DNA of 64,000 nucleotides from Antedon mediterranea (lineage: Eukaryota > Animalia > Echinodermata), in the NCBI RefSeq assembly GCF_964355755.1, contig NC_092674.1, positions 12,028,001 through 12,092,000 on the forward strand, read 5' to 3'. The position numbers were made by a program, and so were the translations under genes. Position 1 is the stretch's first letter. Each line of letters starts with the position of its first letter. A model generated the notes under the pieces. That model searched no databases. It worked only from the letters and a program-made list of their open reading frames with translations, and was not told the origin of the DNA. Positions 19,237 through 58,600 of the stretch are shown here, in pieces.

Positions 19237-19329
19237 TATCAGTTAAAGTAATACAGCGCCAACTAGAAAAAAACGCAATGTATAGTAACTAACAACCGGA
19301 AACATTAGCAGATGAATAACTTATAATTA

Positions 19330-20196: not shown

Positions 20197-20238
<42 letters not shown>

Positions 20239-20370
20239 CCAAAGGCAAATTACTGAACAAAATGACAATGCTGTGGGTATCAATGGCTGGATCTCAATGG
20301 AGATACAAAAATAAAAAGCGAAAAGCTAAATCAAAACGATAAAGTAAACAGCCAGAAAAGTTAGCAGATA
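19330..20370 (+). mobile_element. Penelope-like element 3' remnant: GIY-YIG endonuclease C-terminus plus direct and inverted pseudo-LTR copies around (TA)n
   Basis: YVGETKNTLRMRMTQHRS...PVAEHYN...H...KENHWELLLKTTKPFGLN (to 19701); 19880-19940 recurs inverted at 19960-20175 and again at 20183-20368. Confidence 0.85.
20089..20125 (-). ncRNA. Minimal type I hammerhead ribozyme in the Penelope pseudo-LTR
   Basis: Minus strand reads GCA-CTGATGA-AT-GGC-TAGTGTT-GCC-C-GAAA-GCTC|TGC: both core boxes, a 3-bp stem I, stem II, a palindromic AGCT in place of stem III, and a CUC cleavage triplet. Confidence 0.8.
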
Positions 20371-34300: not shown

Positions 34301-37300
34301 TTTGTGTTGGTTTAAAAACAATATAAAATAAAACAGTTTACGTTTACCTGAATATTGATCCCAATTTCATTTCCAGAAACAGACGTGAATAACACGTTCG
34401 GCGAAATCATTGGTTCTATACATAAAACAATAGGCATTAAACAAATGTTACAGTATTAATACAAAAACATAAACTGCTATACTGCTTCATGCATAATGCA
34501 TAAGGCATTATTATAAGCCATTCTATTATAGATATACGTTTGTCATCAAGTCAATAATAAAATATAAATATTTATTAGTAAAAGTAAAAGGAAAAAGGCA
34601 AATGAAACTAGCCATAATCACATAATTCTCTTGTTCTTCATAGTATACCATTTTTTTATATATAATAATGTTGATCCTCATATATTTATGAAGATGAGGC
34701 TACAAAAAATATAATTAAGTAAGAAATAGATACGTTATATGTTTACCTGAGCAAACTGTTTGCGTTATCCCGTGTGGACTTGATGGACCAGTAGATTCTG
34801 TATTATAAACGTTTCTTGAATGTCGAGCGTAAAATACAATATTGTCATTGAGTTCAAGTCCGGTTAAATTCACAATGTTAGTATTTCTGCTATATACAAC
34901 TGACCATTTGCTATCTTTACTCAATCTGTACCAAAGTTGATGTTCTGTGATGATTCCTGTCCCATAATCTTCACCATAGATCCAGTTTACGTCAAAAGAA
35001 ATGGATGTAGCGATCTGTTTAATGACTCTTGGTGGTTCTCTCAGGTAAGGTAAAGCTTAATGATAATATAAAAGAAGTGGTGAAATTGCCCAAAATGAAA
35101 AATGCATTACACATACACAAAATCATTAGACTGGAAACAAATCAAATATGCGTCCATTAAAATATTTATATTATTTGTTAATTGTTTAGATCAATTATTT
35201 TAACCAAGCCAAATCGACGTTATTCTGTATATTTTTATATTTCACCATCATTTGGATTATATTAGAACTTAGTAAATAACTAAAGAATATGCATACCGAT
35301 ACTGCAGTTGGGTCCAGCCCATGCTTCATCACATCCATTATCACAACTTCCATCATCACGATTACAAGTATCAGAGTTATTGCAATGACATGGGTAGTTG
35401 CACAATTCTCCGAAGTAACCCATCGGACATGGCTTTGTTGATAATATAGCTTTAAAAAAACACGTCTACAATATCAACCAGTAAACACCCGACAAGCGAC
35501 ACAATAGTGACTAGTTCAGTTCAAATGTTAAGGTATATTGTAACGTATTAAGCTACAAAACAAAACAAACTAACTTTATCTCTTTTAAAAAGGTTCATTT
35601 CACAAAAATACAAATACCTTGGCATTGTGGTCCTTCATATCCTTCAAAGCAACTCGATGTAGAGTTACAACCTGTTGTTTTGTCACAATTGTCACAATTA
35701 CATTTCATGTTGCATCCGGAACCATAAAATCCAGCAGGACAATCTTAATACAAACACGTTAATTTACATTCGTAAGCAGAAGATAAACATGAATATAACG
35801 TTTTGTTAAACAGGGAAGAGAAGAGAGGCCTTTAAAAACAAAACAACCGAGACGCCGACATTTTCCTGAATATTCATATTAAACTTTACAGTTAAATTAA
35901 AAATTATTTGAAGTATTGATGAATTCAATTTAACTAAATTCAAGTTTATTCATCGTACAATATTAAAATAGGAAAAAATATTCAAATAGGAAAATTGATA
36001 AAAATTAAACAGACACAAACAAAGTTCAAACTTGCTTACAACAACTATTATTTTAACCCTATCTCTATTCAGGCAACACCCATGTAAAAGAGAGGGGTGC
36101 CACTTAATAGGTGTTATACTGTAATGAATTCATGATGATATGCATATAATAGGATAAATATACGGGATGTAATATCAATCTTGTTCAGAAACATATTAAT
36201 ATTTGTGTTTCAGATTATTATATGTTATCTTATGTTACTGTTCAATTTATAGCAAGCATGCATTTAATAAGATTGATATTATTGTTGCTATACATTAAAG
36301 ACATTAGAAATTACTTACCTTCACTACAATCTAATCCTTGGTATCCAGCAGTACAGCTGCAGCCAACAGGATCTGGAGGACATACCAATTTACCTCTGCA
36401 AGAGTGTATATAGCTGATAGAGCACCTAATGCCACAACCACGGCCCCACAGACTATAGCCGCATGCTATGAAGAAAAATGGTCGTGCCCACAAATGGTTC
36501 TCGAATATACAGTAATTTCAGCGTAAAAAATAAAAACTAGCGATTTCAAATGTACGTATCGCAGCACTATAATAATGTCGTTGATAGGAACGAATACATA
36601 GACACGGTGATGTTTTACACTAATCCCCAAACTGTTCAGACACACATTCTTTTAGCGTCTAATGCTATGGGTCTGAACAAGGCCTGACAGATTTGAATGT
36701 TCCATTCATCGCCAATCAATACTTTTGTATAAACTTAGGGCCTGTTCAGACATACGGAGGTATGCTTTCGTATTGTACGCAACGTACAACTCCATAGGTC
36801 TGAACCAGGAAAAGATTAGTGGAAGCCACCTCGTACGAAACTGATTACGTTACGACAGCTCAAGATACAATTTCAATTTCAATTCAACTTTATTTAAGAC
36901 AAACTGTCCATATGAAACATATAAATACAATAAAAAATAATACAAAGCATTATTTGACAACCGTCATGGAAAGAGGACTAATAAGTATTTGTTGACATAT
37001 AGTGCATCTTAAAATACATATGGATTATGTTTTGGGATTTATTGGATTTACAGGATTAGTGAACTCCGCTTACGAAACGAAAGTCATGCATCAACGATTT
37101 TGACTTGTACCCAATTAAATTTACTACTGCATACCAGATGTTCACCCAAATCGGTGACAATTCAGTTTGAAACGAAAGCATTAGGTAGGCAAATCTGAAC
37201 ACTTTGCTGTTACGCCGACGCTAATTATAATATGACATTGCTTGCGATACAAAAGCATAACTCCATGGACCCTTATGTAAATTCTATTAAAATAGCATTT

Positions 37301-40300
37301 TTTCAAATAAAGTCGATTTGTCGTCAACATTATAATGCTATACTTACTCGACCTGTTTAACCGATTTTCAGCTATTAAAAAACAATTATTGTAGAAGGAG
37401 GTAGAATGCCAAGCATCCTCGTTTTATTGTGTGTGTGTGTGTGTGTTTTTTTTTTCAAGATGGACATCCATTAGACAGTGTATACCACGATCGGAAAACA
37501 TCTTTATTTGGGGGTAAATCGTTGAACCAAAATTCTTTTTAATTGTCAATAACAAATTATCTAACTCAACATAATTAGCAAACATGGTTAAATCAGGTGG
37601 TTAAAATCAGTACCGAGATTTTAACCAACTTTATATACCATCGAGTAAACATTCTAGAAGTAACGCGCGATTTACCGAATTTTGCCCTTACGTAAATTTA
37701 TATATTAGACCATGGGCTGAACACTGAAAAATGGCTTAGTTGTTTAATATCGTGGCACCCGTCTGGCAGCTACCTCATTTTTTGCAGAATTTTTCTACAC
37801 ATATATCTTATCATAAAAACCAAACTCGCCAGTGAAAAAAGTTGCACATTAATTAATTAGAACGATTTTAAGATTATTAATAAAAAAACATGCGCCCTCT
37901 ATTGCCAAAATGTAAAACTCCCTATTCTTTTGCATTATACAATATCTATGTTTGCCAAAAGAGGGCGCATTTTTATAAATTAAATAAGCTCACAATACTG
38001 TACCTGTATCTGTATAGCAAATACAGTAGTGAGACATAGCAGTACCACAGATATTGTATTATATTACATTGGAAGTTGTTGATTTTGTATCAAAACGTTT
38101 TAAATTATAAAATAGAGTATGTATCAAAACGTTATAAATTATAAAATAGAGTATGTATCAAAATATTATAAATTATAAAATAGAGTGGAAACGTGATTGA
38201 AAAGGATTATTTTATATCAATTTTAAACAACAAACATGATTTGATTTGATTTGATTTATTTCGGCATCAGTACATAAAATATCACAGACATACAATTAAA
38301 ATTAGCAAATATAAAAATACCAAAATAAAACAAGGATGCCAAGGATAACTCATAAAAGTCCTCTACGAACTTGTTTCCAATGAGGTCCTTTGAAAGAACA
38401 GCAAAAAGACAAACAATGCAACATATAACAATTACAAAAAACAGCAAAATAGGACTATCGAAAAAAGAAGAAGCGCTTATTAAATAGTTTCTAGAGCTAG
38501 TGAACGTTCATGTAGATACTTTTTAACTTTACTTTTATGTCAATGTATTGCGTGTATAATAATTGTAAAATACTATAGACAACCTTTATTTATATACTCA
38601 TCACATTTATTAGAGACTTGGTAACATAAATACTATATACCAAGTTACAATTATCACAAAATTAATAAATTTTACTTGGATATTGCATATATTATTACAG
38701 GATATTACGAACAGTTTTTTAAAAACACCATCAAAAAGATATGTTATGTATAGCATGTTAATTTTTTATGATAATATATTTATTATTAGTAATATTTATT
38801 TCTACACAAATAAAAGAACATTATTAGGTGAATATCAATTTAACATGAGTTGCTAAAATGTATAAAGTAATCATAATTAGCTATGAAGTACAATGCATTA
38901 CTTACAATATATTGGTAAAAATGTCGTTAGTAATATTAAAGTACAAGATATATGGAAACAAAATCAATAGATATAATATTATATATATTTTTTTGTAATT
39001 TGTTAATGCTATATAATATTTCCTAATTAAATTATTTTTCCCAGCAATCAAAGGCAGAGTTAAACCATTAACTGACTGTTGATCTGAAATTTCTTAGATT
39101 GGTAGATACGGTACTTGCACTGTAAAATAAAAGACATAATGTTACGAATAAGATGACATGAGTTGTCTGTGATCAGCTGAATTGTGAACTTAACAAGTAT
39201 AGTAACAATTCACCTGATAACAAGGACTATAGTGATAATAATTTTTTATTTTGTATGAAAAATATAAAGGAAACATATAGGATAATGGAAGTACTGTAGA
39301 TCATGTTTTTATGTGAACTGTATGTACTTACACTGTACAGTAAATATAACTGCAAACTACTTTTTTTTGTCATTGTCACTGAATCTGTATTCTTCAGCTC
39401 TTTAAATTCAAGATGTTGTGGAATTCTTGTTGACTTTCTTGGAAAAAAAAAGAATAACGTTACAAAATATAGGTAGACTTAGAGGTCTAAAGCTAGTCTC
39501 AATCTGTCAATGTTGAAATCAGTCAATGTTGAATGACATGATGACCACCAACTTAGCTGTATTATAACTATTAACACCATGGCATTATTGTGATTTATTC
39601 TAGGCATACCCAAGGCCTAGAATCAATCACAATAATGCCATGCTAGTAGGCCCTAGTACTGTACCTAGGCCTACTAGAGGCTAGTTAGGTAGGCCTATAA
39701 ATAATATACATTATTATAATAACAGTATTAACATGAACAAATAGGCCTATATATAAAATAGCTGTAAAAATTACACACTCTTTTGTAGGCTTACCTAGTA
39801 GAAGGCAAATAGAGTACTGCTTGTTAACCATCTTCCAATCGAATAGGGTGCCTCTCTCTAGCAAGTAAGGTAGGATTAGCTAGGCCTAGTAGGCTAGCCC
39901 TTATCACTCTGCTGGTGGTGGCATGATGGAGTGAAGTCAAAATGCATAACATTTAGTAGGTAGCTTCCACCATGCGTAACATTTTTAAAATTTAGCGTGT
40001 GTTGCTGCTGCTAGTTTTATAAACTTTTTCACAGAGTTAGATACGTCAATACAACACTAATGTAATATAATGATATACTTTTATAATTAAGAAATTGACC
40101 TTTGTATCAGAATTCAAATAAGTTCACAAACTTAACACAGAAAGTCCAGAGGAGAGTTTTTCCAGATGTTTTAATGACCATTTAGTTTACAATCGAATCA
40201 CTAAAGAATAACTTTGTGACTGTTCCCATCGTAAAACAATTAGATATTGACAGTTTATAGCAGAGATTAGACAGGGCCAATTCATCATTGTAACCTCCCC

Positions 40301-43300
40301 AGATAAGATCAATCACTTCTTAGTTAAACACCCCTGGATCAACTTAGGACCAATCGTTACCATCACAGATTACGTAGTGACATATGCAAATGAACCAAAG
40401 CCAATATACCCCCAAGTTTCAGAAGAGCACAGACACACCTTACAGCCACCTCACGGAGCACACACCTTACAGCCACTTCACGGAGCACACACCTTACAGC
40501 CACCTCATGGAGCACACACCTTACAGCCACTTCACGGAGCACACACCTTACAGCCACCTCACGGAGCACACACCTTACAGCCACCTCACGGAGCACACAC
40601 CTTACAGCCACTTCTTCAGAAGCAGACCTACACACTTCACACCTCACCGAAAGCATCACTGATCCTCCGTTCCTTATCTATACTTATAGTTGTATATTGT
40701 ACTGAAGTATTATACTGAATAAACAATATGTGTTACGACAGTTAAGCGAGTAAGAGTCTTCATTAGTACCTCAACACAACACTATATTACACTAATTCGG
40801 CATATTATATCATAAAAGTCACAAAGATTAGGCCTACAACATGTGTGTGACCGTCTACTAGCCTAGTGTTTTTTTTTTTTTTTGATACCAAGCTAGTACC
40901 GAATAGCTATATCAGAAGGCTTCTCATTGGTCAACATTTAATAAAACTCTCCAAACGCATATGGAAGCTTATTCGTGATTGGCTTATAATTTATATTCAA
41001 CAACTCATAATTTGTTCCTAATTTGTAATTTTTTACAAAAACAGTGCCTTATTGGCGATGGCAAGTTTATGATTAATGTTGTAAATATTATTTTGAAACG
41101 TTATATGTAAAGAATATGTAGTTGCCAGAGGGGGCACCATGAAAAGTAACAATTTTGATGTTCAGCCCATGTCCTATATAGATAAATCAACACAACATTT
41201 AGTTCATTAACCAGTGGTTAAAGAATATTGGCTAATGATAAAATAAGGTTAATGTTAAACGTTTTTTTATCAATTAATTAATCTTTATTTCCATCATAAT
41301 CACCAAAGTAAAAAGAAAAACACAATATTAAGATGGAGGACGTACAACAAAAGCAAAGCCAGAAAAACACAAACAAAGAACAAAGAAAAGACAATTAAAT
41401 AAGATTGCATAGACCACCCACCCACCCCCATGCAAAGCCATAAGTAAACGGATGTGCTTAGAGATCTGCGAGTTTTTTGATTGGCAGACTATTCCAATAT
41501 TTGAGTCCTGTCGAAAATACAGATTGAATGTAGTTTTAGTTTATTCAAAAATATAAAGAAACGTCAACAAATACCTGTTTCGCATTGTGTTCCTTGAAAT
41601 CCAGGTGTACAGATACACAACCCTGTTTTGTCGTCACAAACTCCACCGTTGTAACAAACTGGACAATCCATTTCACAGGCTGGTGGATTCCACTTTGGGG
41701 ATGGGCAATCTGAAATAGTTTTTTGTTTTTTGTTTTTTGTAGCCTGTGGACACTCAAAACACATAACAAAAATATCCCACAATGAATTTACTTTTAACTC
41801 GCAACAAAAATATTGTTAAGTGGGGTGCTTATAGGCACAGGGCAATAATAATATTGTTTATACCCTTTAATAAAGAAAAACACAGAATAGACCTACCAAA
41901 CAAAGGCAATATATTGTATGATCACATAGAAGTAGATTTATGCAGAAAGGAAAATAGGTAGTATTAAAATGCCGAAAAGGTTTATAAAGGTTTTATTGAA
42001 GGATAGCTTATTAAGAATGTTTTCTAAATTTACCAGGTCTACATGGAATATATAATTTCTTTAAGTTGAAAATTGGATGGTGAGTCTACAATTTATTTGC
42101 ATAGAATCATTAAATGAGGTATTCATAAATAATAGCTATGATGAAGCTGTTGTATTTGTCACTACATACTACATAATATTTACATAAAGCAACTATTACA
42201 ATTTTTAAAATGTTAAACATTATGAAATTATAATATTTCAAACAAAATATTTGAGTGTGATATTTAAATAATATAAAGGCGAGAATGCTGATGATACGTT
42301 GTTAGCGTTTTTTCAGTCCTGCTATGCAGAATTGCTACTGGTCTACGTCCAAAAGGATATACTGTTATTAAATATATATACAAACGTCCTCTACAACCCA
42401 ACCCATCCAAGCGTCTTACCTCTTACAATCAGTCTCGTGATCCCGTTATTACCGTCAGGAGCATTACCCTGGAAACATTCGTATACGCCGCCATCTTGTG
42501 CTCGTATATTCTCAATGTTGATTGATAGTGTGTTGTTCCATATGACGTTACCATAATTACGTCTCCATTTGAGACCATCAACTTGTGCTGATGATTCAGC
42601 CTGTATGGTGACAGAATCACCAACGCTAACCGTTATTGTTTTCCTTAAAATATTGATATTAGCTAAAAATGATATTGACAAAAAACATTATCATTAATAT
42701 TATATTTTTTAATATTATTTTTTTTTAATAATTATGTTTATTACCGTACATCATGTATTTGATTATAAACTGTATTACAATAATAAGCAAAATGTATACA
42801 CAAACTGCCTGGCAACTAACATGGTGTCACATTACATTTGTAATTGTCCTACATTATATTTTTTACGGAAGCCCGTTCGGGCCACTAGTTAATTATATTT
42901 TAAGAGCTGTTATATCTGGCGGCTGCCAGTTGTCTAATGTTTATTGAAATTTGTTAATTAATTTTTTTTTGAAATAACATTCATTATCATTAATAATATT
43001 ATTATTAAGCGTTCGGTTTAACAATGCAATGGCATGTTTCACCTGCTTTACGAATTATAACAATTGCCGTTCTTGTGCATACACCTCTTAGTTTTGCTTC
43101 AATTGAAAATACACCAACTTGGTTTGGTATTTTAGTCGAGTCAATAATAACTTGAAGACGATTTAATACCACCGGTGCCATTCTTTCGTCTCTTCCAAAT
43201 CTAGTATCAGCTGGAAAAACGTTCCCATCTAGTGAGGTTGTGTTCCAAGTTATATTTTTTAGTCCTCGTTCGTCATTTAGTATTCCTATTGTAATGTCAG

Positions 43301-43396
43301 TTGTACGATCATCTCCCAGTGTATAACCATAAATTACTGATGCCTGAGTTATAACTTGTGGTCGATCTGAATAACCTGCTATGTCAAGTATAGGAT
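22337..43396 (-). CDS. Receptor-type protein tyrosine phosphatase with Tie-like ectodomain, copy 2 (Ig, EGF, FN3, TM, PTP D1, PTP D2; first exon not found)
   Basis: Exons: 43043-43396, 42420-42662 (Ig), 41575-41709, 36319-36465, 35618-35743, 35297-35449 (EGF), 34747-35055, 34348-34415, 33838-34072, 33177-33449, 32803-33005, 32423-32501 (FN3), 31778-31862 (TM), ~30829-30974, ~29564-29752, 29192-29279, 28701-28777 (DYINASY), 28282-28318, ~27657-27753, ~27315-27437 (YWP), ~26542-26703 (WPD, VIVHC), ~26089-26225 (STGAGRTG), ~25368-25515, ~24846-24923, ~24640-24715, ~24100-24363, ~23614-23766, ~22768-22903, 22337-22402 (EQYKFCY, stop). Confidence 0.92.
26767..26905 (+). mobile_element. Short HINE/DINE-1-like (Helentron-associated) element in an intron
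   Basis: T-run start, sub-terminal inverted repeat AGTCGCGT/ACGCGACT, (GGTC)n microsatellite, TTGTTT end. Confidence 0.6.
30231..30382. mobile_element. Palindromic MITE (possibly PIF/Harbinger-like)
   Basis: Imperfect terminal inverted repeats TTGGTTCGCACTTG / CAAGTGGGAACCAA and internal inverted TTGACCAATCA / TGATTGGTTAA. Confidence 0.5.
38087..38186. repeat. 34-bp tandem repeat, about 3 copies
   Basis: Unit GTATCAAAACGTTATAAATTATAAAATAGAGTAT. Confidence 0.8.
40433..40615. repeat. 27-bp minisatellite, about 7 copies
   Basis: Unit CACACACCTTACAGCCAC(C/T)TCACGGAG. Confidence 0.92.
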
Positions 43397-43539
43397 CTAT
43401 TAAAAACAGTTCCAAAAAGATAAATATTATTATTACAGTAAATTTCAATTAAAATAGTACATATGCCTAATCATTTATCACATTCTAATAATACTAATTT
43501 AAGTTGAACTTTGTTTACTATAGTTCTATTTAATAATAA

Positions 43540-43846
43540 CTAGATGGATGGATTCGAGAACCATCTAGGTCGTGCTCAAAGATGGTTCTCAAATACATAG
43601 TAATTTCAGCGTTAAAAAACTGGTGAAATTAAATTTACGTACCGAAGGACAATAATACATGTTGTTTACAGGAACGAATAAATAAACACGGTGAATTATG
43701 TACTCAACAAAAATTAGCACCTTGGGAATTACTTCCGAAAGAGAAATTTGCAAATTTGCAAATTTAAACAAACTTAATTTGTGTTTTGTATGTAACATTA
43801 GGCTTGAGGGATGGGGAAGATATTGGGTGCAAAGAGGAACAATTTT
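43540..43846 (-). mobile_element. Helitron 3' terminal segment, copy C, fused to the GC-rich island
   Basis: CTAGATGG...CCATCTAG hairpin, then about 300 bp collinear with copies A and D up to GAGGAACAATTTT, where homology stops abruptly. Confidence 0.88.
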
Positions 43847-45138
43847 GCACGCTGCACGACCCGCCTCGACGTCGATCGCGAAGAATCCGGCTTCTGCAAT
43901 TCTGCCTGCCGCAGGGATCTTCCAGCGTGCAAATGTCCGTCGTCTTTCGTACAAGTCGGCGAATTTAGGGTAGCACATTTTTAGAACCGATGACGACGAC
44001 GATGACGTTTGTTTGTTCGTGGTGCTGTCGTCGACCCGGTAGGCGTTGCAACGTGACGGCAAGTACCCGCAGTGCGGGTAAAGTCTCTCGTGTTCTTGTT
44101 CCACGTTATCTCCAGATTTCAATCCTTTCAGTCGACCGCGGCAACAGAAGCATTCAACGCAGTCGCCGACTCCGGTGTAGTAGAATCCGGAGCGAGCCAT
44201 GGAACTATAAGGCGCGACGCCGTTTTTTTTTGCCAGCCAGTTTTTGTAGGTTGCCAATCTGCTCCACAATGACGACATCCTGGCGATCTCCACCCGAGTC
44301 ACGACGGCATCGTTGCTGCTCGTGCTGCTGCGGTTTGCTTCCTTGCGTTTCTGCGACAAAAATTCGCAGGTCCGGTTGAACTTTCCGTGCTCGACGTCAG
44401 CGACGTCCCCTTCCTCCCAGCCTTTAAGACCGACCATGCAGGAGAAGCATTTGACGTGGTCATCCGTGCCGGTGTAGTAAAATCCGGAACGAGCCAAAGA
44501 GATCGACGACACAACGTTCTGGATGGGCCAATTCTTGTAATATGCCAACCGAGCAACGTAACTGGACATGGGAGGCGGGGATGTGGGAGGCGGAGACGGT
44601 AACACGGACAGAGACGACATCTTGTCGGGTAGCGACGACGTCGAAGAACGTGGAAATGGTTCGTGTGCGTTTTCAGCGTTTTGCTTTTTCGTTTTATTCT
44701 TCACGACGGCGTCGTTGCTGCCCGTGCTGCTACGGTTTGCTTTCGCGAGTTTCTGCGACAAAAATTCGCAGGTGGGAGAAAATTTTCCGTGCACGACGTC
44801 TGCGACGTCCCCTGCCTGCAACCGCTCGTGCAGGAGAAGCATTTGACGCGGTCATCCGTGCCGGTGTAGTAAAATCCGGATTGGGCCAAAGAGATCGACG
44901 ATACAGCGTTCTGGATGGGCCAATTCTTGTAAGATGCCAATTACCGAGCTACGTAACTGGACATGGGATTCGGGGACGTGGGATTCGGAGACGATAACAC
45001 GAACGGAGACGACATTTTGTCGGGTAGCGGCAACGACGACGACGACAAAGAACATGGAAATGATTCGTATGCATTTTCAGCGTGTTGCTTTTTCGTTTTA
45101 TTTTTTCTTTTTTTTTAATTATTTTTATTCTTTGACAT
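43847..45138 (-). pseudogene. iap: Inhibitor of apoptosis (IAP) with four BIR repeats; BIR1 disrupted, BIR2-3 intact, BIR4 truncated
   Basis: RLAYYKNWP...LARSGFYYTGTDDHVKCFSC-x16-H-x6-C and RLATYKNW...SGFYYTGVGDCVECFCC-x16-H-x6-C; in-frame TAA at 44941-44943 and a frameshift in BIR1; no RING domain; the frame runs on into the Helitron to 43589. Confidence 0.9.
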
Positions 45139-45200
45139 GGTTGTTTTTGAAATTAGAAAGAAATGAAGATAAAAAAATATTCGTCATGACTTTTCTTCAG

Positions 45201-46375
45201 CTAGAGGCGACTGCAAGTGCGCTCGCTTCGGTTCGCCGCCAGGGACCGTTTCGCCAAGTAAACCGTCTGTTTTCGATCGAGATTTTGTTGCCGTTTTTTT
45301 TTCGGAGGTCCTTGCAACGCACGGCTCAGCGCGGAGTTCAGGTTGATGTAGTTACGCCAAAACGACAGTTCGGCGTTGCTCGTCGGGCCTCTTGTGTCGA
45401 CCAGGTGCCTGCAAATTTTGACAAGGTCCTCGATCTTGTCGTTGTCGCCCCCTCTCTCTCTCTGCCTCTCTCGCAATTAACGTCGTAGTATTCCAACTGA
45501 GGCAAGGACGAAATCGATCGATTGTCTTCGGACAGCGTTGTGGCCACGGTCATCGTTGTACCGAACACGTCCGAAAATCTGTTGAGCATTTTCGACGGCC
45601 TGTCCGACATGACGTGACTTATGTCCCTGTAAGGAACTTTCGAAAACTTCGATCGACTCCTGACGCAGGAGTACATGGGACGAACGTCCGACATGCGGAC
45701 GAGAGTTCCCTCCGGAACGTACTTCCACGCAAAAGAACCGGCTCGAACTTTTCCGATGGCACGATGGCCTTTCTTCGTATCGACGGCAATTCCGAGCTCG
45801 GTCGCTCCCAATTTGGCGAACTCGGCTGAATCGAAGGCGACGAGCTTGAAGCGATGTTCTGTTCTGTTGTACGTCACGTTCCTCGGCGTAATGTTGTTGT
45901 GAACGATGCCGATCTTGTTCAGATAAACGACCGCTTCGCAAATGTTTGACGTCAACAAAGTCACACAAGGGACGATGCAGTGCACGTAACGCAACATTTC
46001 CAGATCGCATCCTTCGTTGCTCATCTTGATGGAAAGTACCATGCCTTTCAGGAACGTCACGTCGATAAGAAGCGGCATGTACTTTCGGTTGTTCGCGACC
46101 GTCTTTGCGTGAGCGAGTATCATCGCCTCCTTGTTGCCGGTCGGATCAGGCTTCTTTGTGTCGCCGGCGGAATTCGAGAGGAGCAAAGTCTTTTTCACCA
46201 CTCGCACATATTCCTTGCTGGACTTGACGTTTCCGAAGCGTCCGTTCTTGTCCACTCGAAAGGCCCCGTATCTGCTGACGGATTCGTCCATCTTGTCGAA
46301 AAGTATCGTGGTTATTTGCGTCGACGTGTCGTCGACGCCACCATATGCGGCGGTGGTAGGTTCAACTGCAGCCAT
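45201..46375 (-). CDS. Intronless protein-kinase-fold protein, predicted catalytically inactive; probable frameshift in a GA tract near 45460
   Basis: GRFGNV (Gly loop), VVKK, KEAMIL (alphaC Glu), VVYLNKIGIVHNNITPRNV (catalytic-loop equivalent), FKLVAFDSA (DFG equivalent), SDVFG (subdomain IX); ORF 45201-45476 looks like the displaced C-terminus. Confidence 0.75.
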
Positions 46376-46963
46376 GTCCCAAATTTACAGGTGGCAACAC
46401 GTTTCGGCGAGGAAAAGTCCCAAATCGCTTTACGAAGCTCTTGTGGCGGAACGTAAATGGGTTATCCTTGGCCCTAGAATCCTAGGCCTACTGTAGAAAG
46501 TATCGTATCGCAGTTGTGTAATCGCTTCTTGTTGCTATACGCTTGGGTGCACACGGAACAACACATTTAACTGATGAATTATTCATGTTTATTTTGTGAC
46601 GTTTCATCAGGGGGTCCCCAACTTATGTACGAAAAACAAAATCGCCGACGGGACGGTGAGCTGGAATCGATCTTCGGATTGTTTCGCTTTGTTTCGTCGG
46701 TGCGCCAGGGCTCTGCTCAAGTGCCACCCGACAACGGAATTCGTACGAAGTCCGTTACAATCCCACGGAACTTGCGTCAAAGTCATAGAACGGCTAGCTC
46801 TCGAAAGAGACGACCCTTCCAATCGATTTGCAGACGCCGACGAAGATTCCAGAGAAGACGGATTCGATTTTCCGCCCTCGAGATCGTTGCCTTGTCATCT
46901 GCCTCGGCCGTTCGACGAGCCGCGACTGCCTGCGCAGTACTCGCACGGCGGCGCTGATTACGA

Positions 46964-49900
46964 TTTTTTTTTTCATTTCATTTCATTTATTTCAATATCA
47001 TTATCGCAGCCTTAGCTGAATTACAAAGATATTTACATTTGTTCAATATTAAAATTTGTATAAAAGTATAAAACCAATGATAATTATACATAAAAAAGGA
47101 GGCAATTTACACAAGAAATACAATACAGGAACATTCAAAAAGTTTAGCTTAAAATATTAAAATACAAAAAAAAAACACCTAAAAGCATCAATAAGAATCG
47201 CAAAGCTGTACTGGGTGATATATACTGATTATTCATTTAGAAGCGAGATAAGGTATGGTATTGCACTTTTTCTATATCTTTCAACTCTGCATTTGGGTTG
47301 TTGATACTTTACACGTCTTAGTTTCATGTTACTTACATTCTTCACTGGAAACCATTTTCCAAAATGAATACTTTTTGAACAATTCAGAGCAAACTTATAG
47401 CATAGATTACGCCTTCTATCAGATAAAGTGTCTAAAGAAAGATCATTGAGTGCTTGGTCATAACATATGTAGTCATTACACAATATTATTCTGCAGGCCT
47501 TTTTTTGGACAGATTCTATCATATCACTTTGTTTCTTAGTGAGACTAGAATGCCATACTGGGACAGCATATTCAACACTTGGTCTTATGTAACTCTTAAA
47601 TACATCTACAAGATCAAATTTCGGAAGATTGAACTTTCTTAATCTACATAATATATGCAGACGTCTACTGGCTTTGGATACAATTTCTTTAACATTACGG
47701 TCCCATTTGAGGTTAGCTTGTATCCATAAACCTAGTAACTTAGTTTCATTAACGATTTCAATTGTAGCATTACCAATGAAAAGGGGTTCAAGTTCATATT
47801 GATTTCTTTGAAAGTTAAAATACATAGTTTTACATTTAGTTGGGTTAAGTTTTAGTTTGTTTTCATTAGACCATACATTCAGTAAAGCAACATCATTCTG
47901 AATTGAGGAAGTTACGTCCTTTTTTACTATCTGTCCTATGCACAAATCATCTACATATTTCCAAGTTTTACATGGCGAGTCTTGCATGGCATCATTAATT
48001 AAAGCAAGAAAGATCATAGGCCCAAGGAGCGTACCTTGAGGGACGCCACATGTTAGATTAACACTCATTGATCAGGTGGATTTATAGCGTACTTGTTGGG
48101 TTCTGTTTGACAAAAAGCTAATTAAACACGGTACAATTTCAGGTCTACAGCCAAGTGTTACTAATTTAGAAACTGCTATTGTGTGATCAACACAATCGAA
48201 TGCTTTACTAAAGTCAGTTAAAACAAACTGACCAACAGATTTGGGAATGTTACTACCTTCATAGAACACATTTAGTAGATCAACCAAATTATGGGTTGTA
48301 GAAAAGTGTTTACGGCAACCATATTGGTTGTTATCAAGATTTTTCTCGATATCTGTTAAGAGCCATTTTTTAATGAAGCCCTCAGCTACCTTAGCTAAGA
48401 TACATGTAAGTGAGATTGGTCGAAATTTGTCAACCCTAGTACAACCATTTTCTTTGGGAACCGGAGTAACAATAGCATCCTTCCACATAGTTGGGACATG
48501 ACCCTCACTGAGGGAGGCTTTTAAGATATTAGTCATAGGGATGCTTAGTTCGCATGCAAAATCTCTTATTAATCTGTTAGGCACATTATCAGGGCCCGGG
48601 GACTTATTTACTTTAACTTTTCTTAATTGATTGTACATTTCCCATTCTTTTACATTAGGGGGTTTATTAGCAGGTAAATACGTAGGGAACTTACATAAAT
48701 CAATACTAGGTCTGCTTTGGGAAGTTATAGCAAAATGGTTGTTTACAAAATCACTTATACCATGATAGTCATCCTGCGGAATATCCTCAACACTAATAAG
48801 TGGTTGGGGCTTAGTTTTATTAGCTAACATCTGCACGCCTTGGTGCCATTTATGGGGATTAGTGGCTTTTAAGTTTAATAAACGTTCATTGTAAAAGTTC
48901 ATTTTGTCTTTCTTGATCACTTTTTGTACCTTATTCCTATACTATTTCCATTCCAGCGATTTACCATGATTAGTAAAAGCGTGTTGACGTTTCATTATAT
49001 AAGATCCTTTGCTTGTTGTGAAATCCATGGCTTATCAGTTGGATGTATCTTAATGGATTTAACCGGGAAGAAAGTGTTCATAGCAGAAGTCAATGACAAA
49101 TAAAATGATTGCGTTTTCTGTTCAGTAGTACTCGCGTTAGTAACCTCGTACCAGTCATGGGTAGTTATCCAACGGCCAAATTCTTCAACACTTTTCGCTT
49201 TCATTGGTCTGATTACACGCTTTTCGATTTTGTTGCTATTCGTCCTTGTAGTTGCTGACAACAGAACACAATTATGATCGCTAGCACCCATCGGCGACAC
49301 AATTCGGGGATCGCAATAATACTGCTTCAGATTGGTGGCTATAATATCTAGTATTGCATCCCCTCGCGTTGGTTCTTTCACAATTTGTTTTAGGTTATGT
49401 GCATGGCATAGCGGGGCTAGGTCAGTTCTGTTCAGGTCCCCCATAATAATGAAGTCAGCGTCTGGGTGTTTAAGTTTAAGACTGTCAAGAGATTTAATAA
49501 TATGATCCAAAAGTAGTTGTTGGTCAGAAGAATTAGGTGGAATATATATTCCACAAACTATAATAGAGGATACAGCTCTAGGAAGCCTCTTCGGTCTTAT
49601 AAAAACCCAAACACACTCTAGCTCTTCGGGTACTACTATTTCAGGTATTCTTCGCGACAGAAATTCAGAATTAACATATACAGCCACTCCACTACCCTTC
49701 CTATGCGTTCTATGATAGGTATAAATATCATCAGTGCATCATCTGTTATTTGCGGTGTTTGCCAAGTCTCTGTGACAACTGCTAAATCAATACAATTTTG
49801 AAGTAGAAGGGTTTCTAGTTCGTCCACACGGTAGATTAACGAACGCGGGTTAGTCAGGAAAATCGATGGGAGTGATGGCTGTAACATTGTATAGTTGACT

Positions 49901-50763
49901 TTACGAAGTGAATTAGGGAATAAACTACTTAGAAAACGCCCTCGCTTGTTGTCTATATAATCAGAAGCACGTGTAACAGTGATAATAGTGGGAATTTTTC
50001 TGCGTATATTTACACCACCTCTTCTACCTCTACTTTTACGATAGATGCCAAGATTATTCAGCTTAGTGAGGGTTCCCTTAGGTAGGTATTGCACCTTATT
50101 ACGACGTTTAAAGAAGGCTGATCCAATATAAAATAGCTCATGTCTGGAATAACGAGTCATTTTGGCTTGCTCAGTGGCTTGTGTATCATTCCAATGTAAG
50201 AATTAAATCCCTTCTTGTTAAAATTTGAGAACTTATCTCACCTCAACAACAGCAGTACAGATAAAATGTTAAAAAGGAAAGTTATCTCAATCCAACACCA
50301 ACACTCAACAGTACAGTTAAAATGTTAAAAAGTGGTTCCACATCAAAAAAATGTAAAGAAAAAGTACTTGCACTAAGTTAAATTAGATCACAAACACATA
50401 AAGATCATCATGCTACAGTCGCCCAATACTTCTGAAACCGCCGATTCTGTCGGTTGGTCTGGGCCTAGGCTAGGCTGCCCACTCGGCTTGCCTGAATTCT
50501 CCGCCGACAACCGTCCGACGATAGGTCGCGGTGAGCCCAGCCAGTATCCTGGTTATAGTTTCAGTTGTGGGATTAGCAAGTTAATGTTCAGATTGCAATT
50601 TATAAACATAACATGTAGCATTCAATCCCCAGTACAATGCACAAATTTTACTACTAAAGCAACAGATGTCCACAAAACAACAAAAAACCAGTCACAAAAG
50701 AGGAATTCCAGAGCCAAAAATCTGTAAACTAATTAAGAATGGCGACAGCTATAATGCGCCCTC
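46964..50763 (-). mobile_element. Near full-length CR1/L2-group LINE (Rex1/Daphne-like; APE and RT in one disrupted ORF)
   Basis: LPSIFLTNPRSL, VTETW, GIYIPP, MGDLN, SDH; KSPGPD, FRPISLT, DFSKAFD, GVPQGTLLGP, KYVDD across ORF pieces 50160-47229; (TGAAA)n plus poly-A tail at 46964-46995. The 5' boundary is approximate. Confidence 0.88.
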
Positions 50764-50789: not shown

Positions 50790-51623
50790 TGATAAGATGT
50801 ATAAATGGTCAGTAAAGTGGCAGTTGCCCTTGAATATTAATAAATGTAAGGTTATGCATCTCGGTAAAAAATCCTTGAACACAACATACTTTATGGGAAC
50901 AGGTTCAGATAGAATTCAGTTAGGAGTTGTACCTCAGATGAGAGATCTTGGTGTTTTAGTTGATAATAAATTGAATTTTCATGATCATATTGTTGAAGTT
51001 GTTAAAAAGGCTAACTCTAGACTTGGTTTAATTAAGAGAACCTTTGAATATTTAGACAGTCATTTAGTGTCTATCCTTTATAAATCAATGGTTAGACCGA
51101 TTTTAGAATATTCAAGTACGGCTTGTCTTCTTCAGTTTGTTGGTGATTCTATTCTCTTAGAAAAAGTTCAGCAAAGAGCCACAAAACTTGCTGTGGAAAT
51201 TAAAACTCCACCATATAGTGACCGAATGAAATTTATGAAACTGCCATCATTAGCATTTCGAAGAAAGAGGTCTTGCTGCTTACAGATTTTTAGAATGATA
51301 CAAAAGTATGATAATGTTAATCTGGGTGTCTTTTTTGAATTAGCACTATCTACTGTAACTAGAGGCCACAATTTTAAAATTAAAAAAGTTCATAGTAAAT
51401 CGAAACACAGACAGAAATTCTTTTCAATATCTGCAGTAAATGATTGGAATAGTTTGCCATAGCATATAGTAAATGCATCCTCTATAAATAATTTTAAAAC
51501 CCATCTTGAAACACACTGGAAAACCCAGAACCTAAAGTTTGAGCCATATAACCAAGATGTTCAAAGAGGGACTCACAAACCTTAACAGGTTTATAGTCTA
51601 AAGGTCAAGGTAAATCAAGGTAA
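50790..51623 (+). mobile_element. 5'-truncated CR1-type LINE (RT C-terminus and 3' UTR)
   Basis: WSVKWQLPLNINKCKVMHLG, DLGVLVD, LYKSMVRPILEY, LEKVQQRATK, TRGH, WNSLP; short (CAAGGT)-type tail repeats at 51601-51622. Confidence 0.88.
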
Positions 51624-52612
51624 AAATAATTGAAAATGTAAACTTAGATGGTTGAATATCTAAAATAAAAGGAAGACCCCACCAAAAATAATGTAGCCAC
51701 AACATTGTTAAACTCTACCCTAATGCTCTGACTAATGTATAAGCTTTCTACAATTTCACACACCCCTCTCTACCCACTCCAAGACTATCGCCTTTTACGT
51801 AGATGGTCTGTAGAGCATTTGAGGAGAACGAGTAGTTCTATTTTATTTTTCATTCGCCATTTAACTCTTAATTAATTAGACATTAGTAAGAATTTTTTTA
51901 ACAATTTTTAAATTTTTTATTTATAGGTTTCTGGATTAAAAACTATTGTTTTTGGGGCATATTAACTTAGGATCCTCAACATCTAAATGAAAAAAAGAGT
52001 TATTATCTGGGTAAATATTAGCAAGAACATGAGACTAGCTTTCTTTGTTTTATAGTACACTTATTTCTTTCTTCTCATCACATACTGTATTGCATACCAT
52101 TCCCAATAATCTAACCATCTCCAAGATACAACTCTAACAGGGGCATCCAAATTAACAATTCTAAAATATTAAAGCTTCTCAATTGGACACAAGTGAGTTG
52201 ACCAATTACAAGCGTGTTGTGATTGGTACCATTACTTACAGTGAGCTTATATATCTGTGTTGTGCCAATGTGGAAGCAAGCAAATACATAAACACACCAA
52301 CAATAATGTAGCCACAACGTTGTTAAACTCTACCCTAATGCTCTGACTAATGTATAAGCTTTCTACAATTTTACACACCCCTCTCCACCCACCCCAAGAC
52401 TATCTCCTTTTACGTAGATGGTCTGTAGAGCATTTGAAGAGAACGAGTAGGTCTATTTTATTTTTCATTCGTCATTTAATTCTTAATTAGAATTTTTTTT
52501 TTTTTTTACAATTTTTTTTAATTTTATTTATGGGTTTCTGGATTAAAAAGTTTCATTGTTTATAAGTGAGATATTTCTCTTGGTTTTTAAAATTAGAATT
52601 AAAACATTTTAC

Positions 52613-55600
52613 CATATATAGTAACAACAACACAGCATGACTCCATGTTACCAGTGGAATCTTGAGCTTCGTAAGTAATTTTCGTTTCTCCAATTACAAA
52701 CACACCATTAGCAGGAAAGTCTGATGTAGTACTTAGGGTTTCTCCAGAATTATCAGACACTGTTACATTAACTGCAAAATCTTCTAGTGTGATATTTGCT
52801 TCCCCTAGTGGCGTGTTGTACGAGTATGGGCCGGGGCATATTAACTCAGGATCCTCAACATCTAAATGAAAAAAAGAGTTATTATCTGGGTAAATATTAG
52901 CAAGAACATGAGACTAGCTTTCTTTGTTTTATAGTACACTTATTTCTTTCTTCTCATCACATACTGTATTGCATACCATTCCCAATAATCTAACCATCTC
53001 CAAGATACAACTCTAACAGGGGCATCCACATTAACAATTCTAAAATATTAAAGCTTCTCAATTGGACACAAGTGAGTTGACCAATTACAAGCGTGTTGTG
53101 ATTGGTACCATTACTTACAGTGAGCTTATATATCTGTGTTGTGTCAATGTGGAACCAAGCAAATAATTATCACTTCATGAAAAATTACACATTTCATTAT
53201 TATGAACATTAAAGAATTTCAGTATCAGCATCAGTCCTACGCCTAGACTAAGCTAGGCCTGAAAATGGCGGTAGCCGGGGATTTTGTCTTTGGCAGATAG
53301 TATTAAATATACCTTGTTCACACGCAGTGCCATCATAGCCAGTTCCTGTGCAATCACAAGTTGCAACATTCATAAGAATATAACATTCACCATTCACACA
53401 TGGCTCCAACAAACAGGGATTATCTAAAAAATAAACAATATTACACTCAATCACAGATTATGACAAAAATTACATTATACAAATAAATAATGTTTAGTTT
53501 AATCGGAAGAATAGTATCACACGTTAAACGATTTACCGTTCAACGAGGCAGATTTCAGTCATGAAAATAATGCAAAACATTTATGTCTTTTAGAACACAC
53601 CTGAGTATCATTCAAATAATTTATTTCGTTATTAGTCAACAACAAATCTTATTCCGTTTCTGTCAAAGGCTAGGACACGTATAAAGCCACTTGAATTTTT
53701 GATTGGATAAATATTTTCACAACAAACAAGGTATAATATCTTTGTGTTCAACTTACAAGTTTCACATGTCGCTCCCTCATAGATACTTGTGCAATTATTA
53801 TCATATTGGAGAAATACTTCGACAACAAACAATGTATAATATCATTGTGTTCAACTTACAAGTTTCACATGTCCCACCCTCATAGACACTTGTGCAATTA
53901 TTATCATATTGGATAAATACTTCGACAACAAACAATGTATAATATCATTGTGTTCAACTTACAAGTTTCACATGTCCCACCCTCATAGACACTTGTGCAG
54001 TTACAAGTAAAGTTGCCATTTCCTAGATCTGTGCAAGTCCCACCATTCATACATGTAGCTCCAGAGCAAGGGTTAACTGAAAATTAAATACAACATACAA
54101 GTAACTTTATTTGTCAATGAACAAGACAATAATTGAAAATGTAAACTTAGATGGTTGAATATGTAAAATAAAAGGAAGACCCCACAAAAAATAAGGTAGC
54201 CACAACATTGTTAAACTCTACCCTAATGCTGTGACTAATGTATAAGCTTTCTACAATTTCACACACCCCTCTCTACCCACTCCAAGACTATCGCCTTTTA
54301 CGTAGATGGTATGTAGAGCATTTGAGGAGAACGAGTAGTTCTATTTTATTTTTCATTCGCAGTTTAACTCTTAATTAATTAGACATTAGTAAGAATTTTT
54401 TTAACAATTTTTAAATTTTTTATTTATAGGTTTCTGGATTAAAAAGTATTGTTTTCGGGGCATATTAACTTTGGATCCCCAACATCTAAATGAAAAAAAG
54501 AGTTATTATCTGGGTAAATATTAGCAAGAACATGAGACTAGCTTTCTTTGTTTTATAGTACACTTATTTCTTTCTTCTCATCAGATATTGTATTGCATAC
54601 CATTCCCAATAATCTAACCATCTCCAAGATACAACTCTAACAGGGGCATCCACATAAACAATTCTAAAATATTAAAGCTTCTCAATTGGACACAAGTGAG
54701 TCGACCAATTACAAGCATGTTGTGATTGGTACCATTACTTACAGTGAGCTTACATATCTGTGTTGTGTCAATGTGGAAGCAAGCAAATACATAAACACAC
54801 CAAAAATAATGTAGCCACAACGTTGTTAAACTCTACCCTAATGCTCTGACTAATGTATAAGCTTTCTACAATCTCACAAACCCCTCTCCACCCACCCCAA
54901 GACTATCTCCTTTTACGTAGAGGGTCTGTAGAGCATTTGAAGAGAACGAGTAGATCTATTTTATTTTTCATTCGTCATTTAATTCTTAATTAGAATTTTT
55001 TTTTTTTTAACAATTTTTTTATTTTTTATTTATGGGTTTCTGGATTAAAAAGTTTCATTGTTTGTAAGTGAGATATGTGTCTTGGTTTTTAAAATTAGAA
55101 TTAAAACATTTTACCATATATAGTAACAACAACACAGCATGACTCCATGTTACCAGTGGAATCTTGAGCTTCGTAAGTAATTTTCGTTTCTCCAATTACA
55201 AACACACCATTAGCGGGAAAGTCTGATGTAGTACTTAGGGTTTCTCCAGAATTATCAGACACTGTTACATTAACTGCAAAATCTTCTAGTGTAATATTTG
55301 CTTCCTCTAGTGGTGTGTTGTACGAGTATGGGCCGGGGCATATTAACTTGGGATCCTCAACATCTAAATGAAAAAACAGCTATTATCTGGGTAAATATTA
55401 GCAAGAACATGAGACTAGCTTTCTTTGTTTTATAGTACACTTATTTCTTTCTTCTCATCACATACTGTATTGCATACCATTCCCAATAATCTAACCATCT
55501 CCAAGATACAACTCTAACAGGGGCATCCACATTACCATTCTAAAATATAAAAGCTTCTCAATTGGACACAAGTGAGTTGACCAATTACAAGCGTGTTGTG

Positions 55601-58600
55601 ATTGGTACCATTACTTACAGTGAGCTTATATATCTGTGTTGTGTCTTTGTGGAACCAAGCAAATAATTATCACTTCATGAAAAATTAACACATAATTTGA
55701 TATTATGAGAGGTTAGGCCTCAACACATTTCATTATTATGAACATTAAAGAATTTCAGTATCAGCATCAGGCCTACGCCTAGACTAAGCTAGGCCTGACA
55801 ATGGCGGTAGCTGGTGATTTTGTCATGGGCAGATAGTATTAAATATACCTTGTTCACACGCAGTGCCATCATAGCCAGTTCCTGTGCAATTACAAGTTGC
55901 AACATGCATAAGAATATAACATTCACCATTCTCACAAGGCTCCAACAAACAGGGATTATCTAAAAAATAAATATTACAGTAAATTACTGACTATGAAACA
56001 AATTACATTATACAAATAAATATTGTTTAGTTTAATTGAAAGAATAGTATCACATGTTAAACGATTTACCGTTCAATGAGGCAGATTTGAGTCAAGAAAA
56101 TAATGCAAAACATTCATGTCTTTTAGAACACACCTGAATATCATTCAAATAATTTATTTCATTATTAGTCAACAAAAAATCTGATTCTCCGTTTCTGTCA
56201 AAGGCTAGGAAACGTATAAAGCCGCTTGGATTTTTTATTCGATATCACAACAAACAAGGTATAATATCATTGTGTTCAACTTACAAGTTTCACATGTCGC
56301 TCCCTCATAGACATCTGTGCAATTACAAGTAAAGTTGCCATTTCCTAGATCATTACAAGTCCCACCATTCATACATGCTGCTCCAGAGCAAGGGTTAACT
56401 GAAAATTAAATAAAATATATAAGAAACTTTATTTGTAAAGGAACAAGACAATAATTGAAAATGTAAACTTAGATGTTACTATCATATAGGTAGTAATCAA
56501 GGGAAAGTTTTTTGTTTTTTTTTGCAACTAGCAAAGGTTTACTAGCGGATACAAAAGTATATTTATAGATTATAGATATCAATAAATGAATGAATGCATT
56601 TAGACACTTGCAATGGTGCATTCATACAATTACAAAATTTAATTTACTTCTTTTTCGTATACACCATAATGACAGGTTTGGTTTTTATGATAATAAAAGA
56701 TCTGTATTGCTGCATACCTTCAACTGTGATAGTAAAGTTACAATAAGCAGTGTTATTAGATGAATCTGTGGCATTACACATGACCAAGATTTCACCGATT
56801 GGAAACAGTGACCCAGATAACAGAGAGCACACAGGTGGTATCACTTCATTTGAATTATCCTCTACCAACACTGTGTAGTTATACTCTGCTCCAGGTAAAC
56901 CGTCATCGGTTGTTACTGTGTCTGACGATGGACATGTGATATCTGGACTTTCCATATCTGTAAAGAACAATTGTATAACATTAGAAGGGATATATTTAGT
57001 TGAAGAAGGGTAATTTGGTTATTTATACCCTTTTCACATCTGCATAAACTGTTACAACTTGTAACAAGTTGTAACCAGGTTTGCATAGTGTGAAGGCAAT
57101 TTTGTGGAAAATCTTCTGAGATTTCACAGGGGTCCCTTGTGAAATCAAAGAAGAAAAACACACCAACAAGAGGCTTGTGTTTTTGTTCCGAGATCTTTTG
57201 AGTTCTTAATGTAATGTATTGCCCTGGTATTAACTAGTAATCAAATAGCGTGCAACTATTCTTTCCTCCTGAGATTTCACAAGGTTCGCGTATGCGTGTG
57301 TGAAAACATGTAATAAGTCGGGAGATCAAACGTGGTTACAACTTATGAGGATGTGAAAAGGTAGAATATGTAAAATAAGAGGTAGATCCTCCCAAAAAAT
57401 AATGTAGCCTCAGAATTGTTAAACTCTACCCTAATTTTGTGAAACATGTATAGGCTTTCTACAATTCCATATCGTCATTTAGTTCTTAATAAAGAATGTT
57501 TTTTTACAATTTCGTTATTTTTTATTTATGGGTTTCTGGATTAAAAAGTTTCACATTGTTTATCAGTGAGATATTTCTCTTGGTTTTTAAAACGTTTTAC
57601 CATATATAGTAACAACAACACAGCATGACTCCATGTTACCAGTGGAATCTTGAGCTTCGTAAGTAATTTTCGTTTTTCCAATTACAAACACACCATCAGC
57701 AGGAAAGTCTGATGTAGTACTTAGGGTTTCTCCAGAATTATCAGACACTGTTACATTAACTGAAAAATCTTCTAGTGTGAAATTTGCTTCCCCTAGTGGT
57801 GTGTTGTATGAGAATGGGCCGGGGCATATTAACAAAGGATCCTCAACATCTAAATGAAAATAAAAATAGTTTGTCAGTGTAAATATAACGAATAACATGA
57901 GACAGGCTTTCTTTGTTTTATAGTACACTTATTTTTTTCTCCTCATCAAAGATTGCATACCATTCCCAATACTCTAAGCATCTCAAAGATACAATTCTAA
58001 TACAGGCGTCCACACTAAAGAGTCTGAATATTAAAGCTTCCCAATTGGACGCAAGTTGATCAATCACAAGCGTGTTTTGATTGGTAACATTACTTACGGT
58101 GAACTAACAAATCTGTGTTGTGTGGAACCAAGCAAATAATAATCAGTTCATGAAAAGTTAACACATACTTTAAATCTGCTATTATGTGAGGCTAGGCCTA
58201 CACCTAGACTAAGCTAGGCCTGCCACTGTATTAAATATACCTTGTTCACACGCAGTGCCATCATAGCCAGTTCCTGTGCAATTACAAGTTGCAATATTCA
58301 CAAGAATATAACATTCACCATTCACACAAGGCTCCAACAAACAGGGATTATCTAAAAAAGAAAAATAATATTACAGTCAATTACCTATTACTAGATGGTA
58401 CGCCGGCTTCGCTCGCGTACCATCTAGGTCGTGCCCACAGATGGTTCTCGAATACACAGTAATTTCAGCGTAACAAAACTGGCGATTTCAAATGTACGTA
58501 CCGCAGGACTACAATACATTGTCGTTTACAGAAACGAATAAATAGACACGATGATTTATGTAGTCAACTAAAATTAGCACCTGGGGAATTACTTCCAAAG

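Follow-up and report, generated by a model that had tools for sequence, protein, structure and literature searches.

Where does a 3.1-kb island of GC-rich DNA in a feather-star genome come from, and does the transposon at its edge carry it? The stretch analysed here, called the window, is 64,000 nt of the genome of Antedon mediterranea (contig NC_092674.1, positions 12,028,001 to 12,092,000). The island occupies positions 43847-46963 of the window, holds the remnants of an IAP gene and of a divergent Ser/Thr kinase gene, and directly abuts the 3′ piece of a Helitron-like repeat. A preliminary description had read it as virus-like DNA, either carried as Helitron cargo or integrated at a Helitron. 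Our preferred reading, held with some confidence, is that the island descends from an undescribed herpes-like virus integrated in the feather star, of which it is a worn remnant at low copy number; that it came from a large DNA virus of one kind or another we hold with good confidence. The virus-like origin stands in our analysis, on host-unlike codon use and on a kinase family with a member beside a herpesvirus-type terminase, while the Helitron cargo does not.

The composition of the island was compared with that of 109 windows of the same size elsewhere in the 64-kb stretch. GC content was 0.516 in the island, compared with a mean of 0.318 in the other windows (sd 0.022, maximum 0.378), and the observed/expected ratio of CpG (CpG o/e) was 1.50, compared with a mean of 0.75 and a maximum of 1.08. 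GC content at third codon positions (GC3) was 0.66 in the IAP gene and 0.67 in the kinase gene, while three host exons gave 0.17-0.36 and three open reading frames (ORFs) of long interspersed nuclear elements (LINEs) gave 0.23-0.31. Codon use in the island differs from that of the host, and these measurements confirm the 3.1 kb of GC- and CpG-rich, host-unlike DNA reported earlier. The island is not, however, one uniform block, since positions 46471-46645 are a very high-copy host repeat. Its ORFs had been described as intronless and co-oriented; the IAP and kinase genes do share the minus strand, but both are broken. A further ORF of unknown nature had been assigned to the strand of the Helitron. 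Open frames occur on both strands of 46646-46963, so the coding strand there is ambiguous; the plus frame had no match in Pfam, PHROGs or NCBIfam, and the minus frames had none in Pfam. A scan with Rfam gave a single match, at chance level.

The IAP gene is preserved as far as its fourth BIR domain. BIR1 is broken by in-frame stops near 45115 and 44940 and by a frameshift near 44820, and both BIR2 (approximately 44554-44354) and BIR3 (44260-44060) are complete. The cut in BIR4 falls exactly at 43847, and the RING-bearing C-terminal part is absent. What is left of BIR4 runs contiguously up to the cut without an intron. BIR1 and BIR2 arose by tandem duplication and share 83% DNA identity. The remnant is 93-95% identical (tblastn) to three A. 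mediterranea proteins, of which XP_071947530.1 comprises BIR1-BIR2 and both XP_071948729.1 and XP_071948685.1 comprise BIR3-BIR4-RING, jointly giving four BIRs and a RING. The latter two are separate copies, 82% identical overall, and all three models lie on one 36.19-Mb sequence. The bilaterian XIAP/cIAP-type IAPs are built on a similar plan, with several BIRs and then a RING at the C-terminus (PMC13159474). The island IAP differs from these in having four BIRs through the recent duplication of BIR1 and BIR2, in being intronless over the part present and in its GC3; introns interrupt the C-terminal BIR of host IAP genes (PMC13159474). An orthologue of a host XIAP or cIAP was rejected on the same grounds, namely GC3 of 0.66 compared with 0.17-0.36 and a remaining part of BIR4 that is unsplit.

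The IAP searches gave 87 matches among 627 candidates and 18 among 4,657. Carp cIAP gave a full-length match at 29% identity, baculovirus IAP3 was 30-34% identical to the island IAP, and the abalone herpesvirus IAP stood far down the list of matches. In a tree of BIR domains (146 rows, 67 columns, quick method only) the island BIR1-3 clustered together (support 96), apart from viral and sea-urchin BIRs, and neither the searches nor this tree contained a close IAP from Anneissia or sea urchins. An IAP3 of the baculovirus/nudivirus type, which has two BIRs and a RING and groups with insect DIAP1 and viral IAPs, was rejected because the island protein has four BIRs and its BIRs fall outside the viral clusters of this poorly resolved tree. 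A UBA-like stretch in the protein P0004 was also rejected, Pfam giving no detection.

The window kinase alone scores below the Pfam cut-off and is supported by homology. Its closest relatives come only from Anneissia japonica, with 44% identity to XP_033096925.1. A search of 1.84 billion representative proteins at a threshold of E 0.001 gave nine matches: one Anneissia fragment (45%), five unnamed proteins (479-639 aa; sources ENA, Logan and NCBI) and three generic kinases. The family as we delimit it has seven relatives of the window kinase, two Anneissia fragments and the five environmental proteins. Alignment of the crinoid kinases with the five environmental members by hhalign gave 99.8% probability over 233 columns. 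A profile of these five matched the C-terminal half of the window kinase at 34.9 bits, compared with at most 2.1 in 200 shuffles, and also matched a second frame (45431-45261, E 7e-6) that is the continuation of the kinase gene. In a tree the eight family kinases were split from five generic kinase domains with support of 98/96 (small outgroup), and generic kinases match the window kinase little beyond subdomains VIb-VII.

The window protein had been called a pseudokinase, a label that is unproven. The catalytic-loop and Mg-binding motifs are canonical in 7/7 relatives and non-canonical in the window copy, which is decaying, so the label may reflect nothing other than decay of that copy. A conserved, catalytically dead kinase family was rejected for the same reason, since none of the seven relatives shares the loss of motifs. 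Scans of IMG/VR with eight queries (the window kinase, P0004, P0115, P0112, the terminase piece described below, P0110, P0114 and P0116) gave no match with any of them, and neither did a metagenome scan with a two-sequence kinase alignment. AlphaFold gave no usable model for the window kinase (predicted local distance difference test, pLDDT, 29). With the model of the relative P0115 (pLDDT 55), searches of BFVD, PDB and VIA-align returned generic kinases only.

Several side observations concern this family. P0112, P0115 and P0116 have an extra C-terminal alpha/beta domain of ∼130 aa without a Pfam match; in the P0115 model it is predicted as a confident fold (pLDDT 70-89) that appears GNAT-like by eye only. 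Contigs of sequencing runs X2, X5 and X7 match only 45600-45634 and 45863-45901 and then diverge, representing a second, more distant family kinase in these same individuals. The two Anneissia fragments, XP_033096925.1 and XP_033095320.1, are 51% identical to each other; these truncated members are labelled plant-type lectin receptor kinase and CLK1-like, names that look like mis-annotation of viral remnants. Alloherpesviruses have several kinases, the orthology of which is described as unclear (PMC13030845).

One of the seven relatives, P0115, has a readable gene context. It is 25% identical to the window kinase and was located at 100% on contig JAAUXV010180437.1 (L001), of which 19.4 kb (1-19436) were read. 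This gene-dense sequence is 83% ORF-covered, with GC of 0.52 and CpG o/e of 1.37; its dinucleotide distance from the island is 103, compared with 233-283 between the island and five host or LINE stretches. One L001 ORF matched Pfam PF02499, the C-terminus of the herpesvirus terminase, at 25.5 bits (cut-off 22.8). The terminase-like sequence lies in two pieces, 2337-∼3020 and 3654-4236; splice sites, a donor and an acceptor, flank a minus-strand ORF (2852-3619) between them. The upstream piece has a Walker-B-like motif, and the Pfam match falls in the second piece only. The herpesvirus terminase gene is spliced and has an opposite-strand gene inside its intron, and L001 matches this layout. L001 also carries two DED (vFLIP-like) ORFs, an Ig membrane gene, an OTU-like protease gene, BACK/Kelch genes and many ORFans, although among the DED, Ig, OTU and Kelch matches only the first DED is above the Pfam cut-off. 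Genes of these kinds point to an animal host, and on its gene content L001 is probably an undescribed animal herpes-like virus. An ORF upstream of its kinase looked portal-like and was rejected as a portal, having no support.

In other individuals the element is longer. Nine sequencing runs (X1-X9; four studies, three organisms) matched part of the stretch; none was listed as RNA, although X5 may be. Six of them (X1, X2, X5, X6, X7 and X9) were analysed as contigs; joins of contigs to the window were taken from the contigs listed, beyond which the two tables comprise 3,344 and 139 further pieces. In 5/5 runs covering the site (X1, X2, X5, X6 and X7), island contigs pass 43847 into non-Helitron DNA, for 15 nt in X1 and X2 and for ∼970 nt in X5, X6 and X7, lengths that were taken from record coordinates and are backed by the loose-end table. 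Run contigs also hold ∼520 nt at 45300 that are missing from the window and 2,014 nt (X1, X5 and X6) where the window has the 175-bp repeat at 46471-46645, and they reach 159-649 nt past 46958. Single contigs (X5 record 14, X6 record 20) connect the start of the IAP gene with the kinase and with the piece on the right. Because run contigs extend past both edges and fill two gaps, the element is at least ∼7 kb long in other individuals, where it links the IAP and kinase genes without a Helitron. Its summed depth was 30-200 (X1, X5 and X6), compared with 1e4-1e5 for the Helitron in host runs, depth not being copy number; the element is low-copy. X2 in addition contained a 102-nt contig identical to the window, as a minor form. 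X9, from organism C, held four short island pieces at a depth of 4-5.5, two of them 96-97% identical; the host flank had no cover and Helitron depth was only 14-18. This ratio of island to Helitron depth misfits contamination by the host species. X9 is one run with short contigs, and it hints at stronger conservation between species for the element than for host DNA.

The window copy has decayed by stops, frameshifts, two internal losses and substitutions toward A/T. Only 32 listed differences within open frames were classed, and 19/32 were substitutions private to the window. Thirteen of these were toward A/T and three toward G/C (p 0.011), and 7/19 represented CpG decay. Synonymous changes also numbered 7/19, which does not differ from the neutral expectation of 0.27. 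From its sequence the remnant in the window is predicted to be non-functional.

A number of observations weigh against a herpes-like virus as the source. No terminase, capsid, polymerase or integrase was found among the ORFs and Pfam matches of the 3-kb island. The herpes link consists of one kinase at 25% identity and one context among seven relatives, and kinases move between viruses, which weakens it. PF02499 is the single terminase match in L001, barely above its cut-off, and PDB, PHROGs and NCBIfam gave no confirmation. The closest IAP matches outside Antedon are cellular, at 23-38% identity, and the deeper branching of the BIR tree is poorly resolved and does not give the placement of the island. 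A Foldseek comparison of the P0115 model with BFVD returned generic giant-virus and herpesvirus kinases at 11-16% identity, and ESM Atlas returned generic kinase clusters only. The presence of the element in all host runs analysed fits a fixed host locus equally well. Finally, the junction at 43846/43847 is bridged by no contig listed in the six runs; contigs omit minor variants, which bears on this absence.

The island could instead derive from some other endogenous large DNA virus or giant mobile element (nimavirus-, mirusvirus-, nucleocytovirus- or Polinton-like) that shares the kinase family by exchange, an origin that we consider unlikely. The same composition and decay evidence fits it, BIR genes and a kinase also occur in endogenous nimaviruses (PMC10871703), and Nucleocytoviricota kinases, at 0.97, are among the top ESM Atlas clusters found with the window kinase. 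However, the matches in the Atlas and BFVD are to generic kinases, and the sole family member with a readable context adjoins a herpes-type terminase domain. No nimavirus protein was a named match in the searches with the IAP and the kinase.

It is more doubtful still that the island is a host-derived cassette, in which an XIAP-type gene, made by retroposition, and a divergent kinase were duplicated a few times in Antedon and partly pseudogenised. The architecture of the IAP is of the cellular type (BIRs and RING), RefSeq labels the A. mediterranea copies as host genes, and every host run analysed contains the element. IAPs number 29 in Anneissia, and animals commonly have intronless duplicates of IAP genes (PMC13159474). 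Against these stand a GC3 far above that of host exons, CpG in excess rather than depleted, and a window copy that drifts toward host composition. In addition, the IAP has no close counterpart in Anneissia or sea urchins, and outside subdomains VIb-VII the kinase lacks cellular relatives. That the assembly misjoined symbiont or viral sequence to host sequence, whether at the junction or over the whole island, would fit a junction bridged by no contig listed and is very improbable: misjoining leaves unexplained the host-type decay and the host repeats on three sides, the 102-nt contig in X2 is identical to the window, and the A. mediterranea copies lie on a 36-Mb sequence.

There remains the Helitron. 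Helitrons have a TC 5′ end, a hairpin and a CTRR end at the 3′ side, insert before T, and have an autonomous partner encoding Rep/helicase. The full-length repeat concerned here is a non-autonomous, Helitron-like unit of ∼510 bp, and the piece at 43540-43846 is 79-86% identical to the copies at 17764, 58390 and 36480. The family had been said to occur three other times in the window; two of these are near-complete copies, and the third is an internal fragment without the CTAG end. Nor is the terminus at 43540 retained as a whole, as had been thought, for CTAG followed by T is present but the hairpin core has been replaced, and the hairpin folds at -5.5 kcal/mol compared with -14.6 and -14.4 in the full copies. 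A 5′ TC is absent where the alignment of the two full copies stops. On the far side of the island no Helitron 5′ end is present and a LINE adjoins, as the preliminary description had it, and the join at 43846/43847 is spacer-free as quoted there.

The reading frame of the cut BIR4 runs on into the Helitron piece at 43847, and run contigs that carry Helitron sequence go on as Helitron. Among the contigs listed for the five covering runs the island is not linked to Helitron ends, an outcome that the preliminary description had itself taken to refute cargo. The spacer-free, same-strand join to a Helitron-like 3′ end speaks for a Helitron that captured and mobilises the island. That reading is nevertheless hardly credible, since the join cuts BIR4, the island continues without Helitron in every covering run, its depth is hundreds to a thousandfold below that of the Helitron, and a 5′ end is lacking; integration at a Helitron is not supported either. 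The join is likely a later deletion scar in one copy rather than a cargo boundary. When the bases before the break in the run contigs are set by eye against the last 11 of the Helitron piece, 8 match with a one-base offset, for which the chance is ∼0.006 allowing three offsets. This match suggests that the join may have arisen from a microhomology-assisted deletion.

The features of the window are collected in Table 1. The island lies ∼150 bp upstream of a host exon with GC3 of 0.17, part of an Ig/FN3 receptor-like gene that occurs as a tandem duplicate and whose neighbouring exons have Ig and fn3 matches. Beyond the LINE at its right end the high GC and CpG do not return, i.e. the island is not resumed, and no duplicated 10- or 12-mer was found as a target-site duplication of this LINE. 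The remaining rows record other repeats and duplications in the window.

Table 1. Positions of the island, its remnants and surrounding features in the window (RT, reverse transcriptase; MITE, miniature inverted-repeat transposable element)
Feature	Position	Strand	Remarks
Helitron-like repeat, 3′ piece, 307 bp	43540..43846	-	ends CTAG followed by T at 43540; 5′ ∼200 bp missing
IAP gene remnant, intronless	43847..45138	-	Pfam BIR E 1e-42; tblastn 93-95%
Divergent Ser/Thr kinase remnant	45300..46375	-	frameshift near 45447; cut near 45300
High-copy host repeat	46471..46645	.	summed depth up to 2.8e5; run contigs differ here
Further GC-rich element piece, probable coding fragment	46646..46958	.	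kinase on same X6 contig (record 20)
LINE, A-rich TGAAA-repeat tail abutting island right end	46964..50202	-	RT-like and endonuclease ORFs
Near-complete repeat copies	17764-18275, 58390-58910		hairpin and CTAG followed by T in both, read on minus strand
Internal repeat fragment without CTAG end	36480-36611		alignment to other copies
Host exon, tandemly duplicated Ig/FN3 receptor-like gene	43029..43397	-	69% DNA identity to paralogous 15610-15971
Ig/FN3 receptor-like gene, two tandem copies	327-16039, 29171-43448	-	exons 69-92% identical
Near-complete LINE	9105-14310	+	ORF1, endonuclease and RT frames; few frameshifts
Two adjacent palindromic elements	19879-20368		(TA)n core; 97% identical; small-MITE-like
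Tandem repeat, 27-bp unit	40406-40648		∼7 copies
Tandem blocks of ∼0.9 and 2.5 kb with HYR-domain exons	51600-59600		82-99% identical; recent exon-array duplication

If the island does derive from a herpes-like virus, its history most likely ran as follows. The virus would have captured the mRNA of a host IAP of the XIAP/cIAP type and duplicated one BIR, the resulting 4-BIR-RING protein serving to block apoptosis of infected cells, and would have kept the family kinase as a second accessory gene. Viral DNA would then have entered the germ line at a few sites. One deletion, probably microhomology-assisted, could have taken the 3′ end of the IAP gene, any viral DNA that lay beyond and, from a Helitron copy next to it, the 5′ part, and the LINE and the short repeat may have eroded the other side of the island.

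Several known systems resemble this one in part. Herpes-related regions are embedded in a starfish genome (10.1101/2025.04.19.649669) and, as the island probably is, they are divergent herpes-like DNA in an echinoderm. The starfish regions were called from a DNA polymerase and other viral genes, whereas the island keeps accessory genes only and lies in a crinoid; the words ‘crinoid’ and ‘Antedon’ are absent from the main text of that report. BelcheriHV-1 is a malacoherpes-like genome integrated in the lancelet, near-complete at 150 kb and present in 20% of individuals (PMC12373286). Both it and the island are low-copy, lie among interspersed repeats of an invertebrate deuterostome and have GC above that of the host, but the island is only 3 kb long and decayed, and the element to which it belongs measures at least 7 kb and occurs in all host runs analysed. 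The Majaniviruses, endogenous nimaviruses of shrimp, have BIR genes annotated as host genes (PMC10871703), and with the island they share the reading as an endogenous large DNA virus with host-derived BIR genes labelled host. Unlike them, the island has no match to a nimavirus protein and shows neither a telomere nor an rDNA target. Teratorn is a fusion of piggyBac and an alloherpesvirus in which the transposon mobilises the virus (PMC5601938), and is a herpesvirus in an animal genome that touches a transposon, as the island may be. Since the other copies lack the Helitron end, the contact at the island is likely accidental, unlike that in Teratorn.

Literature searches, the coverage of which excludes most subscription journals, found no report of endogenous viruses in crinoids or Antedon or of herpes-like viruses of crinoids. 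Two distinct Anneissia kinases, the diverged second Antedon-like kinase and the X9 pieces at 96-97% identity hint at a wider reading. In this reading, which we put forward only tentatively, crinoids would host an undescribed, still-circulating herpes-like lineage that crosses species and integrates repeatedly, marked by the kinase family with its additional C-terminal domain and carrying a captured 4-BIR-RING IAP, and part of the reported crinoid IAP expansion would be viral.

What the window contains is a fragment predicted to be dead, and the idea of Helitron cargo, its most unusual-looking aspect, fails. Crinoids are the sister group to all other living echinoderms, and a herpes-like origin of the island, if true, would extend herpes-like viruses to them. 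The kinase family would offer a handle for finding such viruses in genomes and metagenomes where their core genes are too divergent to be found. If the origin proposed here is correct, some of the IAP and kinase models that RefSeq now lists as crinoid ‘host’ genes are likely viral.

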